Shown here: in pieces, positions 8,994 through 39,385 of the stretch
Position numbering within the stretch: position 1 is the first letter of the stretch
Layout: every line of letters starts with the position of its first letter
Assembly (NCBI GenBank): GCA_964534625.1
Contig: CAZHRF010000001.1
Coordinates: 3,562 to 67,561, forward strand
From: an uncultured archaeon
GTDB taxonomy: Archaea > Asgardarchaeota > Heimdallarchaeia > Heimdallarchaeales > Heimdallarchaeaceae
Length of the DNA stretch: 64,000 bases
Direction of reading: 5' to 3'
Program-made: the position numbers and the translations under genes
The notes under the pieces: model-generated
Databases searched by the model: none
What the model saw: the letters and a program-made list of their open reading frames with translations, nothing else
Told to the model about the DNA's origin: nothing

Positions 8994-10473
<1,480 letters not shown>

Positions 10474-10566: not shown

Positions 10567-10706
10567 TTTTTTGATTAAAAATTATTTCTTCAATTTTTTG
10601 ACTTTTTATTCTCTTGTTGTTTTTATTAGTTTTTTATAGTATTCTTTTCTTCATATTTCTTCATCTTTCCATAAAAATTATTATAGAGAACGTTTTAACT
10701 TTAATT

Positions 10707-11108
10707 ATGAACTTTCAATCATCTCTCCCCACTCTAATTAAACAAGCAAAAAAAGCCTATTCTTTGGCTTTTGCGCCTTATAGTAATTTTAAAGTTGGAG
10801 CTGCTTTACTGACAGAAGATGGAAACATTTATTCTGGTTGTAATGTTGAATTTGCAGATTATTTAGTTTTACATGCTGAGTTAAACGCAATTGGGTCTGC
10901 AGTAACTTCAGGCGAAACTAGTTTTGTAGCTATGGTTATTTATTCTAATCGCGAACCTCCTGTTCTCCCTTGTGGTTCTTGTAGACAAAAAATTTATGAA
11001 TTTTCGGCTCTTCATAATACTGATATTAGAGTTATTGCTATTAATAATAATACTCAGATAAGTTCTTCGATAAAAACGCTTTTACCTGATGCAGATATTT
11101 TTAATTGA
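10707..11108 (+). CDS. cdd: cytidine deaminase
   Basis: Zinc-ligand motifs HAELNA and PCGSCRQ are present. The protein is about 133 aa from the ATG at 10707. The upstream part of the listed ORF is hydrophobic low-complexity sequence and probably not translated. Confidence 0.75.
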   Translation: MNFQSSLPTLIKQAKKAYSLAFAPYSNFKVGAALLTEDGNIYSGCNVEFADYLVLHAELNAIGSAVTSGETSFVAMVIYSNREPPVLPCGSCRQKIYEFSALHNTDIRVIAINNNTQISSSIKTLLPDADIFN

Positions 11109-12343: not shown

Positions 12344-14251
12344 TTGAAGGTGAATATATTGAATCTTGAACAATGGATCAACGAAAAAGATTTACAAAAA
12401 CTTGAATCTCTTAATAATGAAAAAATTATGAAAGTAATCCATGATTTTTTATCCCTCTGTAAACCAAAAGAAGCTAAAGTAATAGATGACTCAAAAGAAG
12501 ACATTGCTTCTGTTCGTCAATTAGCTATTAAAAATAGTGAAGAGCAGCAGTTGAAAATGGAAGGACATACGATACATTTTGATGGTTTTTATGACCAAGC
12601 TAGGGACAAAAAAAACACTTGTATTTTAATTGATCCTGAAGAAAAGGATAAGTATGGTCCTCATCTTAATACACTTCCTAGAACTGAAGGTTTAGATGAA
12701 ATTTTAAATATCATGGATGGTTGTATGAAGAACAAAATTGCTCTAATCAGATTTTTCTGTTTAGGACCAACTAACTCTTCATTCTCTCAATGTGCACTCC
12801 AAATTACTGATTCTGCTTATGTTGCTCATTCTGAAGACTTATTATATAGACGAGGATATGAAGAATTTAAAAGGCTTAAGGATCCTAATGATTTTTTTTA
12901 TTTTATTCATTCAGCTGGTGAGTTGACCGATGCAAATGTCACTAAGAATGTAGATAAAAGGCGTATTTATGTTGATTTACAAGAAAATCGTGTTCTTTCT
13001 GTAAATAATCAATATGCAGGTAATAGTCTTGGATTAAAGAAGCTTGCACTTCGATTGGCTATTAATAAAGCTATTTACAATGGATGGTTAACTGAACACA
13101 TGTTTATTTCTGGTATTCATTCTCCATTCAAAGAAAGAAAAAGTTATTTTTTGGGTGCATTTCCAAGTGCATGTGGAAAAACTTCTACTGCCATGGTACC
13201 TGGGAATACTATAGTTGGAGACGATATTGCATATCTTCGTTTAGATAATAAGAATATCCCAAAAGCTGTGAATATTGAAAGTGGTATATTTGGAATTATA
13301 AAAGATGTTAATCCTAAAGATGACCCTGTTATATATAATACTCTCACTACAGAAAATGAATTGATATTTTCAAATGTTTTGATTAATGATGGAACCCCCT
13401 ATTGGATTGGAATGGGAGATCAAGTAGATATTCCCCAAAAAGGAACGAATTGGTCTTCATCTTTATTAGGTGAGTGGTATAAAGGAAAAAAAGGTCCAGA
13501 TGGTAATGAATTACCCCCATCCCATCCAAATGCTAGATATACTATAAAAATTGAAGATCTTGAGAACTTTGATGAAACTTTACATGATCCCGAAGGCGTA
13601 ATTGTTTCAGGAATTATTTATGGTGGTAGAGATTCTGATACTTCAGTACCTGTTTTTGAGTCATTTGATTGGGAACATGGAGTTTACGTAGGTGCAACAA
13701 TTGAATCCGAAACTACTTCTGCGACATTAGGTAAAACTGGTGTAAGAAAGCATAATCCAATGGCAAACCTTGATTTCATTGTTGTTCCTCTTGGTGATTA
13801 TATCAAGTCTCATCTAGATTTTGGAAAGAAAATACCTGATGACAATAGACCATGTATATTTTCAACTAACTATTTCTTGAAAGATGAAGATGGTCAATAT
13901 TATGATGAAATTCTTGACAAGAAAGTTTGGTTATCTTGGGCAGAAGGGAGATATCATGGCGATTATGAAGCAATTGAAACACCTATAGGTTACCTTCCAA
14001 AATATGAGGACTTAGTAGATCTTTTTCAAAACATTTTTGATAAACCATATGATAAAAAAAGATACCAAAAGGAATTTTCTATAAGAGTTGATAAATTCCT
14101 CGAAAAATGTGATAGAATTGAAGAAAGTTTCAAACACGAGAACCTCCCCAATGAATTTTATACCCAGCATGACCTTCAGAAAAAAAGATTGTTAGATATA
14201 AAGAAAAAATATAACAAATCTATAATCTTTCCTTCCGATTTTATCAAATAG
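12344..14251 (+). CDS. pckG: phosphoenolpyruvate carboxykinase (GTP)
   Basis: 635 aa with the kinase-1a motif FPSACGKTS and an overall GTP-PEPCK pattern (NARYT, YGGRDSD). Confidence 0.85.
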   Translation: MKVNILNLEQWINEKDLQKLESLNNEKIMKVIHDFLSLCKPKEAKVIDDSKEDIASVRQLAIKNSEEQQLKMEGHTIHFDGFYDQARDKKNTCILIDPEEKDKYGPHLNTLPRTEGLDEILNIMDGCMKNKIALIRFFCLGPTNSSFSQCALQITDSAYVAHSEDLLYRRGYEEFKRLKDPNDFFYFIHSAGELTDANVTKNVDKRRIYVDLQENRVLSVNNQYAGNSLGLKKLALRLAINKAIYNGWLTEHMFISGIHSPFKERKSYFLGAFPSACGKTSTAMVPGNTIVGDDIAYLRLDNKNIPKAVNIESGIFGIIKDVNPKDDPVIYNTLTTENELIFSNVLINDGTPYWIGMGDQVDIPQKGTNWSSSLLGEWYKGKKGPDGNELPPSHPNARYTIKIEDLENFDETLHDPEGVIVSGIIYGGRDSDTSVPVFESFDWEHGVYVGATIESETTSATLGKTGVRKHNPMANLDFIVVPLGDYIKSHLDFGKKIPDDNRPCIFSTNYFLKDEDGQYYDEILDKKVWLSWAEGRYHGDYEAIETPIGYLPKYEDLVDLFQNIFDKPYDKKRYQKEFSIRVDKFLEKCDRIEESFKHENLPNEFYTQHDLQKKRLLDIKKKYNKSIIFPSDFIK

Positions 14252-14479: not shown

Positions 14480-15007
14480 ATGACTGTTTTATGGAAACAA
14501 CTAGAAACTGGTCCAAATCCACCTGAAGAGATTTATTGTATAATTGAAAATCCAAAAAATAATAAAAATAAATATGAAATGAGTAAAGATGGTATAATTT
14601 ATTTAGACCGGGTTTTACATTCCTCTGTTCATTTTCCTGGTGATTATGGATTAATCCCCCAAACGTATTATGAGGATGGTGATCCTCTTGATGTATTGGT
14701 CCTAATAACTGAACCAACATTTCCTGGTTGTGTGTTAATGGCGCGTCCTATTGGTGTTTTAAAGATGAAAGATGAGAAGGGATCTGATGATAAAATTTTA
14801 GCTGTAGCTTCTAATGATCCTTTATATATGAAGGTTCACTCTTTGAATGATATTTATCCTCATACAATAATTGAAATCGCTGAGTTTTTTAGAAGCTACA
14901 AAGGTCTTGAACCTTCAAAAAAAACTGAGGTTAAAGGTTGGGAATCTAAAGAAGCTGCTCTAAAAACGATAGTTGATTCAATGAAATTATATAATGAGCT
15001 ATTTTAA
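14480..15007 (+). CDS. ppa: inorganic pyrophosphatase
   Basis: 175 aa with the family I PPase signature YPGDYGLIPQT-like FPGDYGLIPQTYYEDGDPLDVLVL. Confidence 0.85.
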   Translation: MTVLWKQLETGPNPPEEIYCIIENPKNNKNKYEMSKDGIIYLDRVLHSSVHFPGDYGLIPQTYYEDGDPLDVLVLITEPTFPGCVLMARPIGVLKMKDEKGSDDKILAVASNDPLYMKVHSLNDIYPHTIIEIAEFFRSYKGLEPSKKTEVKGWESKEAALKTIVDSMKLYNELF

Positions 15008-15978: not shown

Positions 15979-18900
15979 CCTCAACTATGCATACGCCATG
16001 CAGTGGATGACTAGGCTAGGGTGCCGATGAAGGACGTGGTAAGCGGCGAAACGCTACGGGGAGGCGCATACAGCCATCGATCCGTAGGTCTCCGAATCGG
16101 ATTTCCGGTTACAGTTGATAAGACTGTAACAACCAGTAATGGTGGGGAACGGCGGGAACCAAAACATTCAAGTACCGCCAGGAAAAGAAAACAATCGTGA
16201 TTCCGGTAGTAACGGCGAGTAAACCCGGAACAGGTCAAACCGAATGCCTATATTAATAATATGGGTGGATGTGGTGTTTTTGACTATCAAAGGATCGTCA
16301 GAGCTAAGTCGAAATAGCTTATGAAAGCTATGCCAAAGAAGGTAATAGCCCTGTAGACGTAAACTCTCGACCTGATAGATTTCAAGATTAATGTGGCTTG
16401 GATTTGTCGCATGAATTTGGGAAAACTTAGTCCCAAACCTAAATACATCCCTAGACCGATAGCGAACTAGTAACGTGAGTGAAAGTTGAAAAGTATTCGA
16501 AATACGAGAGTGAAAAGTCCCTGAAACTGTATGGTAACAGACGTGAATGGCTTAAAAGAGTAGATTCTGAGTGAAGGAAATCATTGTGAAGTGTGAGTAC
16601 GAATTCAGAGGATCGAGGTCATTCGTTCCGTCTCGAAACACGGGCCGAGGAGTTTAAATCTGTGGCAAGACAAAACATTAGTGGTGTCGTAGCGAAAGCA
16701 ACCAGCACGCAGCCGTAAGGTCAGGTGCGACGTCCGACAAGGGCGTGAAGTCACAGGTTTAAGACCCGAAAGCAGTTGATCTATCCCTGGTCAAGATGAA
16801 GCGCTTCGAAAGGGGCGTGGAGGTCTGAAGAGGTATTGATATGCAATTCATTCTTCTGAATTGGGGATAGTGGCAAAAGACCAATCTAAACTGCTGATAG
16901 CTGGTTCCTCCCGAAGTATAACCACAGTATAGCGTCATTGGAGGTCGTATGTGCGGTAGAGCGACGGGTGGGGGTTTCCGTGGAGTGAAATCTGCGCGCC
17001 CCTTTCCAACTCCGAACTTGCATACACCATAGAAGATGATAGACGGGCGCATATCCGCAAGGGATATGGCCGAAAGGGGATCAACCCTACGATGGGTTAA
17101 GGGCCCTAAATCCCGGTTAAATGTTAAACAGAATGGCGTCCAACAGCGAAGACAATGAGGCGGTAAGCTTAGAAGCAGCTAACCGTTAAAAAAAGCGTAA
17201 CAGCTTACTCATCGAGTTGTTGGGCCCAGAAAATGGACGGGGCTAAACCGGGTCCCGATACCTGTCCGGACTTCAAAAGAGTCTCGGGTAGGGAGGCGAT
17301 CGGATTGGACAGAAGCTGGGAAGTGATTTCCAGTGGACCGTTCTGATTTGCAGATCTCGGCGGTAGTAGGAGCATAGTGAGGTGGGAATCCTCATCGCCA
17401 AAAGCCCAAGGGTTCCTTGGCACTGTTCGTCAGCCAAGGGTTAGTCGGTCCTAAGGTGGAACTTAATACGACAAACCGAAAGGGAAACAGGTTCATATTC
17501 CTGTACCATACGTATAGTCGCGGCAACGCAAGTTCCGAGCTGACACTAGTGGGTAGGTGGTCTAAAAATCAAATTTTAGTTAAATCAAGAAATCTGGGAA
17601 GAACCGTTATGGTGAGAACCAGACGAATTGATGAATAGGCGAGCCATTGGTTGCTTGCTACCATTGATCCCAATAGTCCGTGAAAAAGCGAAGAAAAATA
17701 CGATTACGTATGACCGTACCCAGAACCGACACAGGTGTGGCTAGCTGAGAAGGCTAAGGCGTGTTAGGATAGTTTAGGTGAAGGAAATCGGCAAATTGGC
17801 CCCGTACCTTGGGTATAAGGGGTGCCTGGAAAGGTGAATGCCTTACCAGGTCGCAGTGACAAGGGGCACCCGACTGTTTAATAAAAACATAGCAAACTGC
17901 AAGGGTGAAAACCTGTGTACAGTTTGTGAATCCTGGCCAGTGCAGGTGATTGAAACCGGGGTACAACTCGGCTAAGACCCTGTAAACGCCGGAGCTAACT
18001 ATGAGCTTCTTAAGGTAGGCAAATGCCTAGTCTGCTAATTACAGACGTCCATGAAGGGACCAACGAGGTGCCCGCTGTCTCCACCTAAAACCTACTGAAC
18101 CCACAGTCCAGCGAACAGTCTGGAACGCACCATCGGGAAGAGAAGACCCTGTGGAGCTTTACTGCTGTCAGGGGCTGTTATACTGGTGTGCATGCATAGA
18201 ATAGTCAGGAGATGTTGATGGTGTGTTCTCCGGGACACACTGAAGTTGATCTTGAAATACTGACCATGTGCATTGGTATGACTTACCTCTTGCGAGGGGG
18301 ACACCCCCTGCCTGGCAGTTTCACTGGGGCGGTAGCCTTTTGAAAAGATATCAAAAGGGCCCAAAGCCGAGCTCAACCGGGACAGAAATCCGGTGTAGAG
18401 TGCAAGGGCAAAAGCTCGGTTGACTGTGAATCCAATTAAACGGTTCGCAGATGTTAACGCAGGGCCTAGCGATCTTTCGCATTTGCCATATGTAGGCGGC
18501 GGAAGTGACAGAAAAGTTACCCCAGGGGTAACTGCACTTCTAAACGGAAGTGGCTTAAAAACTGGGTAACAATTACATTTATTATCTTTCAAAAAGGTTT
18601 ATCAAAAAGGCAAAAATTTTTGGGTCTTCCTAAACGATTTATATAGTGAGGAAATAGTCAAGTAACTTCAGTTACAGGCCTATTGATTTGAGCAGATAGA
18701 TTAACCTGATATTAAGAAACCATCAGAACACAGTAAAACTATAAGAGCCATTATTCCGTGAGTGAACGATAGATAGGTTAAGAGATTGGTAACTTGCCTT
18801 TACAGGCCGACAACTGGTCTCTAATAACCGATGTGCAAAAATATTTTGTGCAAGTGCAGCCCTGAACAGAGTTGTCGTGGGTAAGAGTTCACATCGACCT

Positions 18901-19351
18901 CACGGCTTGCTACCTCGATGTCGGCTCTTCCTAGCTTGGTGGTGATTAAGCCACCAAGAGTGGGGTTGTTCGCCCATTAAAAGGGAACGTGAGCTGGGTT
19001 TAGACCGTTGTGAGACAGGTTGGATTCTATCTGATGGTGCTGGCGGGCGATTGAGAGCAAAATCTCCACAGTACGAGAGGAACAGGCGGTTGGGGCCGCT
19101 GGTGTACCGGTTGTTCTAAAGAGCATTGCCGGGTAGCTAAGCCCTTGACGATAAGAGCGGAAAGCATCTATGCTCGAAGCGTTTCTCAAAACGAGTCGCC
19201 CATTCTGCTCTATTCTGGGGACTGGTGACAGTAACCTTAAGAGTAGACGAGAGCGCGGAAAAAAGATCCGTTTGATAGAGCGGGGGTGTAAGCGTCGAGC
19301 TTTGGCGAGATGTTTAGCCTACCGCTACTAACTGCTCAAGCATAGTTAGGC
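15979..19351 (+). rRNA. rrl: 23S rRNA (interrupted by a 335-nt intron)
   Basis: The block is GC-rich. Terminal helix 1 pairs CCTCAACTATGC with GCATAGTTAGG. The sarcin-ricin loop AGTACGAGAGGAAC is at 19070..19083, and a conserved CTCGATGTCGGCTC is present. Ends are approximate to about 10 nt. Confidence 0.95.
18531..18865 (+). other. intervening sequence (intron) in 23S rRNA at the GGGGUA|ACAG peptidyl-transferase-region site
   Basis: An AT-rich 335-nt insert splits the universally conserved CCCC(A/G)GGGGUAACAG...AAGAGUUCA sequence. The junctions fold into an 8-bp inner helix (18532-18539/18852-18859), a 3-nt bulge UAA, a 4-bp helix (18525-18528/18860-18863) and a 3-nt bulge GAA. There is no ORF inside. 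Confidence 0.65.
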
Positions 19352-39286: not shown

Positions 39287-39385
39287 TGGAGCCTCGAGGG
39301 GGAGTTGAACCCCCGACCTCTACCTTTTTGGAATCCATTTCGGATCTTACCAAGGTAGCGCATCTACCTACTGAGCTACCGAGGC
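39287..39385 (-). tRNA. tRNA-Thr(GGU) with a 22-nt canonical intron (39326..39347), CCA encoded
   Basis: Acceptor GCCTCGG/TCGAGGC, anticodon stem CTACC/GGTAG and T arm GGGGG-TTCAACT-CCCCC. The BHB is textbook: a 4-bp TTGG/CCAA central helix, bulges TAA and AAA, and an inner helix GATCC/GGATT. The D-stem 3' strand reads GATGC, one extra T relative to GAGC. Confidence 0.85.

Follow-up and report, generated by a model that had tools for sequence, protein, structure and literature searches.

The window analysed here, 64,000 nucleotides (nt) of contig CAZHRF010000001.1 (assembly GCA_964534625.1, positions 3,562 to 67,561 of the forward strand) from an uncultured archaeon of the Heimdallarchaeaceae, carries a full-length archaeal 23S rRNA gene split by an insert of 335 nt. 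A 1001-nt 23S probe has one match in the assembly (3.37 Mb, 120 contigs), making this the only 23S copy found, and the insert likewise occurs once. On alignment to the Rfam archaeal large-subunit (LSU) model, 362 nt follow directly after GGGGUAAC where the model has 27, a net gain of 335 nt. The G+C content of the insert is 36% against 49% for the exons; the longest open reading frame (ORF) wholly inside it spans 23 amino acids (aa), and the longest stop-free stretch 46 aa. An earlier reading of the window by a model that saw only the letters and their ORFs, called here the original prediction, had described an AT-rich insert at 18531-18865 that interrupts a conserved 23S sequence and lacks a homing-endonuclease ORF, and had proposed a covariance-model alignment as a check. 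Run with RF02540, that alignment finds the conserved sequence truly interrupted, and the absence of an endonuclease ORF extends to remnants of one. The possibility of a hidden or decayed ORF was rejected, as indels among the introns ignore frame (12 of 55 are multiples of three) and no Pfam domain rises above threshold (best E=0.11).

The insert and its bulge-helix-bulge motif

Where in the 23S rRNA does the insert lie? The flanks read ...AAGUUACCCCA-GGGG-UAA-CUGCACUU...(intron)...AAGUGCAG-CCCU-GAA-CAGAGUUGUCG..., and because AAC is present at both junctions, sequence alone leaves the ends free to shift by as much as 3 nt. Two sister families of the same order, f3 and f4, read GGGGTAACAGAGTTGTCG without a break. 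Escherichia coli numbering was anchored on the only U of GGGAUAAC (D2449) and on U2457 (Psi2457), two textbook E. coli positions, and was cross-checked on a copy of the E. coli 23S sequence that is itself numbered with an offset of 4 nt. In this numbering the cut expected under the bulge-helix-bulge (BHB) rule falls between A2450 and A2451, and sequence alone would place it anywhere within 2449-2452, the range estimated in the original prediction. We refer to this position as site A. Throughout the order, with or without an intron, a G stands at the position of E. coli A2448 (GGGGUAAC for GGGAUAAC; 18525-18532 in the window).

The two junctions fold into a strict 3-4-3 geometry, in which a closing helix of 8 bp (h'), a bulge of 3 nt, a central helix of 4 bp (H) and a second bulge of 3 nt follow one another (Table 1). 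The strand layout matches that of archaeal introns, in that H has its exon strand upstream of the 5' bulge and its intron strand upstream of the 3' bulge. The original prediction had named the same four parts (inner helix, TAA, GGGG/CCCT and GAA), and all are found where it put them. In an alignment of 15 sequences, the BHB register leaves 98.9% of cells paired; slid controls reach 32-51%. The single change in helix H among the relatives is from G-U to G-C, while four pairs of h' have changed on both sides, for example from G-C to A-U in 3 and 5 sequences. The 3' bulge appears as AAA, GUA or ACA in relatives and stays 3 nt long, and bulge length is constant at 3 nt across four families. RNAalifold prefers a rival register, CAGGG:CCCUG with a single 4-nt bulge. 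This was rejected, since the two natural variants that tell the registers apart (CCCU to CCCC in genome G013 and G to A after CCCU in G002) both break it and both keep the BHB register.

In a solved endonuclease-RNA complex, the 2'-OH of bulge nucleotide 2 attacks the phosphate of nucleotide 3 (PMC12397907). Applied to UA/A and GA/A, this rule gives an intron of exactly 18531-18865 and the product GGGGUA+ACAGAG. The predicted ligation product, GGGGUA+ACAGAGUUGUCG, is the contiguous sequence of f3 and f4, so that symmetric cleavage after the second bulge nucleotide restores GGGGUA+ACAG as had been foreseen.

One element of the full hBHBh' motif, the outer exon-exon helix h, is absent locally, a gap that the original prediction had also reported and that weighs against the assignment. 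Because h is absent, the motif takes the reduced (B)HBh' form, which is counted as canonical in a preprint on Asgard tRNA introns (bioRxiv 10.64898/2026.10.13.758758). The minimum-energy fold proposes an outer helix UUACCC:GGGUAA. It would put a 15-nt loop where the 3-nt bulge is and was not adopted; covariation cannot test it because GUGGGUAA, the exon 2 side of the pairing, does not vary in family f1, the family that contains Heimdallarchaeum.

The genome encodes the enzymes that such a motif calls for. Two EndA genes are present (PF01974, 92.7 and 45.6 bits). The first paralogue (183 aa) has its best matches among the catalytic chains of crenarchaeal heterotetrameric enzymes (3P1Z_B, 3AJV_B, 2ZYZ_B) and keeps the Tyr...His...Lys pattern, while matches of the second (191 aa) include the structural subunits NEQ261 and PAE0789. 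In the second, Glu takes the place of the catalytic His, its NKKEEYV being aligned with DKEHSVY of the M. jannaschii enzyme. The arrangement seen here, a catalytic EndA paralogue alongside a structural one, occurs in 44 of 60 Asgard genomes (bioRxiv 10.64898/2026.10.13.758758), and two-subunit architecture has been tied to a broad substrate range (PMC12397907; same preprint). The ligase RtcB is also encoded (564 bits).

How would splicing proceed? In the precursor, GGGG of the exon would pair with CCCU of the intron, flanked by the UAA and GAA bulges, and the 8-bp helix would close the intron side. EndA, composed of the catalytic and the structural paralogue, would cut each strand between bulge nucleotides 2 and 3, and RtcB would join the exons into GGGGUA-ACAGAG, with a predicted junction ...CCCCAGGGGUA-ACAGAGUUGUCGUGGG... 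in the ligated rRNA. Circularisation of the intron is probable; its predicted circle junction reads ...GCAGCCCUGA-ACUGCACUUC....

We conclude, with a probability of about 0.88, that 18531-18865 is an archaeal BHB intron in the sole 23S gene, lying between the equivalents of A2450 and A2451 in the peptidyl-transferase centre; a possible pairing of an internal loop with the exons is graded apart, below. By every defining feature that could be tested, the element belongs among the archaeal BHB introns, in a reduced form that keeps a single flanking helix. The motif, its covariation, the uninterrupted sister allele, the enzyme genes and the fixation of the intron in its family were obtained directly by computation, and from them we infer the cutting and joining. 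The original prediction had arrived at the same BHB reading, which gains support from the geometry, the natural variants, the ligation product, the EndA and RtcB genes and a weak group I score.

Table 1. Coordinates of the 23S gene, the intron and its parts in the window, with introns found at site A in other Asgard families
Feature	Location	Strand	Remarks
23S rRNA gene, full-length archaeal, host of the intron	15979..19351	+	RF02540, 2419 bits, model 1-2987
Intron, 335 nt, non-coding	18531..18865	+	model insert; removal gives GGGGUAACAGAGUUGUCG, as in families f3 and f4
Exon 1 segment AAGUUACC	18514..18521	+	3 nt upstream of H; 8-nt Watson-Crick complement of 18788-18795
Central 4-bp helix H, exon strand GGGG	18525..18528	+	pairs with CCCU 18860-18863; 100% of cells paired, 15 relatives
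5' bulge UAA; predicted cut 18530/18531	18529..18531	+	sequence and cut rule of PMC12397907
Closing helix h', 5' strand CUGCACUU	18532..18539	+	four compensatory pairs; 98.3% of cells paired
Second internal copy GGGUAAC	18564..18570	+	complements exon 1 GUUACCC; conserved only here and in part of genus g4
Block 1 GGUAACUU, 5' side of 3'-domain loop	18788..18795	+	complementary to exon 1; 9th of 306 conserved 7-nt windows
Spacer hairpin GCCU-UUAC-AGGC between blocks	18796..18807	+	minimum-energy and consensus folds; stem covaries (columns 451-453 / 471-474)
Block 2 CGACAACU, 3' side of loop	18808..18815	+	complementary to exon 2; 8th of 306 windows
Closing helix h', 3' strand AAGUGCAG	18852..18859	+	pairs with 18532-18539
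Central helix H, intron strand CCCU	18860..18863	+	CCCC variant in G013 improves BHB register, breaks rival
3' bulge GAA; predicted cut 18865/18866	18864..18866	+	sequence
Exon 2 segment AGUUGUCG	18870..18877	+	3 nt after 3' bulge; helix 89 5' strand in mature rRNA
16S gene	8994-10473		in the window
f12, G099 (L122)	site A	-	665-nt BHB intron; 192-aa LAGLIDADG ORF L122:671-1246:-, PF14528, 37.4 bits
f12, G106 (same genus as G099)	site A		145-nt deletion derivative, identical ends
f7, G084 (L124)	site A		189-nt intron; second intron in helix 89
f31, G320	site A		144-nt intron
f31, G365	site A		186-nt intron
f31, G314 (L127/L128)	site A		285-nt intron; 33-nt mini-intron upstream

Distribution and other introns at the site

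An exact 18-nt probe for the 3' junction, searched against one genome per prokaryotic species, returned 14 archaeal records, all from the Heimdall group and including Candidatus (Ca.) Heimdallarchaeum aukensis PM71 (CP084166.1), Ca. H. endolithica PR6 (CP084167.1) and Heimdallarchaeota AB_125; a further 12 matches, in bacteria, are without the 5' junction and are consistent with chance. This places the host in the Asgard family that includes Heimdallarchaeum. A probe of uninterrupted exon sequence, on which site A falls at query position 298, was then used on 400 genomes of the phylum. Alignments break at 298-306 in 17 of 17 f1 genomes that hold the region, which belong to five genera, and in most other lineages they read through to ~320-325. 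Both closed Ca. Heimdallarchaeum genomes (genus g5), whose 23S gene is single-copy, carry the intron. Among f1 relatives the site yielded 15 distinct introns of 335-423 nt, a set that later searches brought to 20 distinct introns of 288-423 nt; a metagenome scan supplied five new ones, L116 among them. The f1 intron is fixed and appears to have been inherited vertically.

Introns at site A in families f12, f7 and f31 (Table 1) are all of 3-4-3 form, and their closing helices are unrelated in sequence. The presence of unrelated introns at one site across Asgard families marks this site as a recurrent target. Together these elements display the expected life cycle, from mobile endonuclease intron through deletion derivative to old non-coding intron, and site A thus offers a compact natural series for the arrival, decay and fixation of introns across Asgard families. 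In G314, a mini-intron of 33 nt lies upstream of the site-A intron, and between the two a 10-nt micro-exon, CCCAGGGGUA, is left.

Two neighbouring sites are also occupied in relatives; neither intron is found in this genome. Site B lies in the loop of helix 89 at ~2477/2478 (GAGCUCAC/A...AA/AUCGACC) and holds BHB introns of ~75-450 nt in f3 and f4 (L018-L029) and in f7 (L124), which cannot be aligned between genera. Site C, in the loop of helix 93 next to A2602 (equivalent to ~19008 in the window), holds a BHB intron of ~150 nt in part of genus g4 (L014-L017), with H formed by UGUG:CGCA, bulges AG/A and AA/A, and the cut at G2599/A2600. A common origin of the site-A intron with those of site B or C was rejected, blastn detecting no similarity among them. 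In ~13 further genomes (f7, f19, f20, f28, f31), alignments break ~105-150 nt upstream of site A (query ~146-193), which may mark one or more additional intron sites.

A conserved interior complementary to both exons

The f1 introns can be aligned over five genera with a mean column identity of 56%. They share the blocks AGAGCCA, UUGAGCAG, GGUAACU and GACAACU, together with covarying helices in the 3' domain and a terminal hairpin. Two of these blocks, extended to 8 nt each, are complementary to exon 1 and exon 2, respectively; the two complements lie 20 nt apart and face each other across one loop. The exon 2 complement (18808-18815) has P=0.012 alone and ~0.0007 jointly with that of exon 1. 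Shuffling reproduced the joint event in 27 of 20,000 trials with 30-nt exon windows (0.14%) and in ~0.07% with 14-nt windows.

Both pairings are maintained across 19 introns. Block 1 pairs in 94% of cells, against 24-51% when slid, and block 2 in 97%, against 28-56%. The mismatches are all terminal once the exon of G314 is read without its mini-intron, and the interior substitutions of the 15-species table are wobble-compatible. As block 1 of G314 complements exon 1 only once the mini-intron is gone, the pairing would there imply an order of splicing. Block 1 also covaries with its target: f1 exons have AGUUACC facing GGUAACU, and f31 exons ACUUACC facing GGUAAGU, a switch from C:G to G:C seen in three f31 genera. 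Within f1, the exon variant AGUUACU accompanies AGUAACU in three introns (G:C to A:U).

The three f31 introns come from a different class and three genera, and align with those of f1 only in the module UGGUAAGU-N10/11-UGACAACUG, as read by eye; their closing stems differ among themselves yet still pair. Their exon 1 duplex lengthens to 9 bp (P=0.001 and 0.004). A pattern search for the module in f31 was accompanied by a reversed-pattern control that equalled it in number of matches, and only matches inside 23S genes were kept for that reason. The unrelated f12 introns have an 8-nt exon 1 complement of their own, UGGGGUAA (P=0.001 and 0.017).

Why would an intron conserve such a loop? Site A belongs to the central junction of domain V, and no helix there is common to the two exons. 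Exon 1 can form a hairpin with the 5' junction, AGUUACCC:GGGUAACU, worth -10.5 kcal/mol, which competes for the partner of block 1, and in the minimum-energy folds of every lineage this hairpin forms and helix H does not. Block 1 could displace the hairpin and so free the 5' splice site. Both blocks, paired to AAGUUACC and AGUUGUCG, would hold the exons together in place of an exon-exon helix. Sites B and C provide no test of such a splint, because the hairpins that contain them already furnish an outer helix.

We therefore grade two claims separately. That the conserved blocks GGUAACU(U) and (C)GACAACU pair with exons 1 and 2 and aid formation of the motif is suggested by complementarity and covariation, and we put it a little below even odds. 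The fuller proposal, of a BHB intron with its own exon-binding guide, common to two Asgard classes, tracking the exon sequence of its host and replacing the exon-exon helix, is tentative, and we would sooner doubt than accept it. The exon-complementary loop is the sole feature of the element that may be new.

Several observations weigh against these claims. The shuffle tests were devised after the pattern had been noticed. No significant complement to exon 2 was detected in the f12 introns, and none to either exon in the f7 intron. The 3' domain of this genome (~18772-18832) has a fold of its own worth -20.3 kcal/mol, in which GGU:ACU pair across the loop, and a three-strand calculation leaves it closed, while the two exon duplexes reach only -8.3 and -9.7 kcal/mol; standard folding is no guide to the loop-exon pairings, because they are pseudoknotted relative to the BHB. 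Block 2 is without a compensatory test because exon 2 is invariant among the module-bearing introns, and the exon 1 duplex offers few compensatory events, which may amount to two on an evolutionary count. Finally, GGUAACU and GACAACU rank fourth and fifth among the conserved blocks, not first.

Could the interior instead serve the excised RNA? The BHB intron would then be maintained for a stable circle that acts in trans, for example by using these two blocks to pair with other 23S precursors, or for a protein-binding scaffold, in which case the exon complementarity would be incidental. Several conserved blocks and covarying helices go beyond what a BHB needs, the 3' domain energetically prefers its closed form, and stable circular rRNA introns, a fate that the original prediction had suggested for the excised RNA, are documented in Crenarchaeota, with precedents in Desulfurococcus and Pyrobaculum (summarised in PMC3326292). 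Against such a role, the 19 introns contain no canonical box C, the insert matches no Rfam family, and no coding signal was detected. Covariation between blocks and exons fits pairing in cis or in trans and so does not separate this explanation from pairing within the precursor. We consider a role for the excised RNA unlikely. A box C/D guide RNA in particular was rejected, with no strict C box (RUGAUGA) in any of the 19 introns and a sole Rfam C/D match at E=5.3; the conserved GUGAGGA motifs are, by eye, the 3' halves of hairpins.

Other explanations and known systems

Very improbable is an insert that is cut without rejoining of the exons, leaving a fragmented 23S rRNA, or that is retained as an expansion. 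Fragmented rRNAs exist in other organisms, but the break would here fall at A2450/A2451 in the buried catalytic core. Moreover, RtcB is encoded, and the same enzyme pair joins exons after BHB cuts (PMC4496867, PMC3326292). Retention is sterically implausible at this site, yet the gene is single-copy and otherwise intact. More improbable still is a self-splicing intron of group I with boundaries GGGGU/ and ...CCCUG/, for which 335 nt would be a normal size without an ORF but whose exon-U and intron-G boundaries, a demand of group I chemistry, are possible only through the AAC repeated at both junctions: the permissive Rfam scan, which the original prediction had proposed, gave only 12.5 bits for RF00028 (E=1.2, threshold 50) over 18528-18677 only, a score to be read with the insensitivity of a single Rfam group I model to some subgroups in mind. 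Archaeal 23S genes with group I introns do exist, and examples in Table 1 of PMC6125680 sit at 1923, 1931, 2500 and 2593, not at 2449. By eye, no guide sequence complementary to GGGGU is present near the 5' end, and the ends of the insert pair together in a covarying 8-bp helix beside the strict 3-4-3 motif.

Archaeal rRNA introns are textbook elements, and published examples come mostly from Crenarchaeota. How does the Heimdall intron compare with them? It resembles the non-coding BHB rRNA introns of Thermoproteales and Desulfurococcales, including remnants in Aeropyrum and Pyrobaculum (PMC4496867, PMC2738675), in being spliced by enzymes, in occupying a conserved rRNA site and in lacking an ORF. 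Both probably descend from an endonuclease-bearing ancestor, and in f12 site A holds a LAGLIDADG intron in one genome and its deletion derivative in another. Unlike those introns, it resides in a Heimdall-group Asgard host, at A2450/A2451, has a conserved interior and has no exon-exon helix; and whereas the crenarchaeal introns are patchy, it is fixed in all sampled genomes of its family that have the region. The 23S introns of Desulfurococcus mobilis (I-DmoI) and Pyrobaculum organotrophum (cited in PMC3326292) share the splicing chemistry, and by analogy circularisation would be expected here. Unlike them, the Heimdall intron is without a homing mechanism of its own, because it has no endonuclease gene.

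Group I introns at LSU position 2449, such as the yeast mitochondrial omega intron, presumably occupy the same rRNA site within 1-2 nt. The internal guide of a group I intron (P1/P10) pairs with both exons, and the loop proposed here would do likewise. Unlike group I introns, the element has no ribozyme core (12.5 bits), and cutting would be performed by a protein enzyme; also unlike that guide, the loop is proposed to pair away from the splice sites, 10-17 nt upstream and 5-12 nt downstream. The motif itself resembles the relaxed BHB and bulge-helix-loop (BHL) substrates of (alpha-beta)2 endonucleases (PMC12397907, PMC2738675) in its four central pairs, its 3-nt bulges and its one flanking helix. 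Those are tRNA substrates, unlike the 23S precursor, in which the missing helix is perhaps offset by intron-exon pairing, a feature undescribed in PMC12397907, PMC2738675 and bioRxiv 10.64898/2026.10.13.758758.

Asgard tRNA introns have been reported (PMC11291895; bioRxiv 10.64898/2026.10.13.758758), and "known intronic regions" have been taken out of Asgard LSU sequences (PMC7594248). In the searchable literature we found neither this intron, nor a BHB intron at this site, nor intron-exon pairing beyond the motif, key older intron work, which may describe similar pairings, being beyond reach. For this lineage and site, then, we found no earlier description of a BHB intron, while the kind of element is known.

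What follows from an intron at this position? The host is among the closest archaeal relatives of eukaryotes, and the intron splits the catalytic A2451 from its neighbour. Because an intron fixed in the family does so, every ribosome in these cells would depend on the tRNA-splicing enzymes. On the practical side, its presence accounts for anomalies in 23S length and will disturb primers, probes and automated rRNA annotation for Heimdallarchaeia. If the exon-binding loop proves true, introns removed by protein enzymes can bring with them a kind of guide that pairs with their exons. In function this would parallel what the internal guide does in group I introns and the exon-binding sites do in those of group II, and it would do so in a class thought to depend on the local motif only. 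It would then bear on a long-standing proposal, the descent of BHB introns from group I introns, and would explain the persistence of an intron where the rRNA itself cannot supply an outer helix.

Three further observations concern the intron's relatives and the surrounding genome. In some relatives, the antisense strand of the intron contains frames of 88-117 aa without a stop (L015:1161-1550:+, L068:5657-6001:-), for which no Pfam domain rises above threshold; that of L015 reaches 130 aa when extended into the exon, and such lengths are unusual at 37-40% G+C. Within the window, a tRNA gene at 39290-39385 (-), scored at 45.5 bits by Rfam and missed by ARAGORN, has, in its anticodon loop, 24 nt at a place where the model has 2, and so probably a canonical intron of ~22 nt. 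The 16S and 23S genes are unlinked, with 5.5 kb between them occupied by ordinary genes, those for cytidine deaminase (10614-11108), GTP-dependent phosphoenolpyruvate carboxykinase (12344-14251) and inorganic pyrophosphatase (14480-15007).

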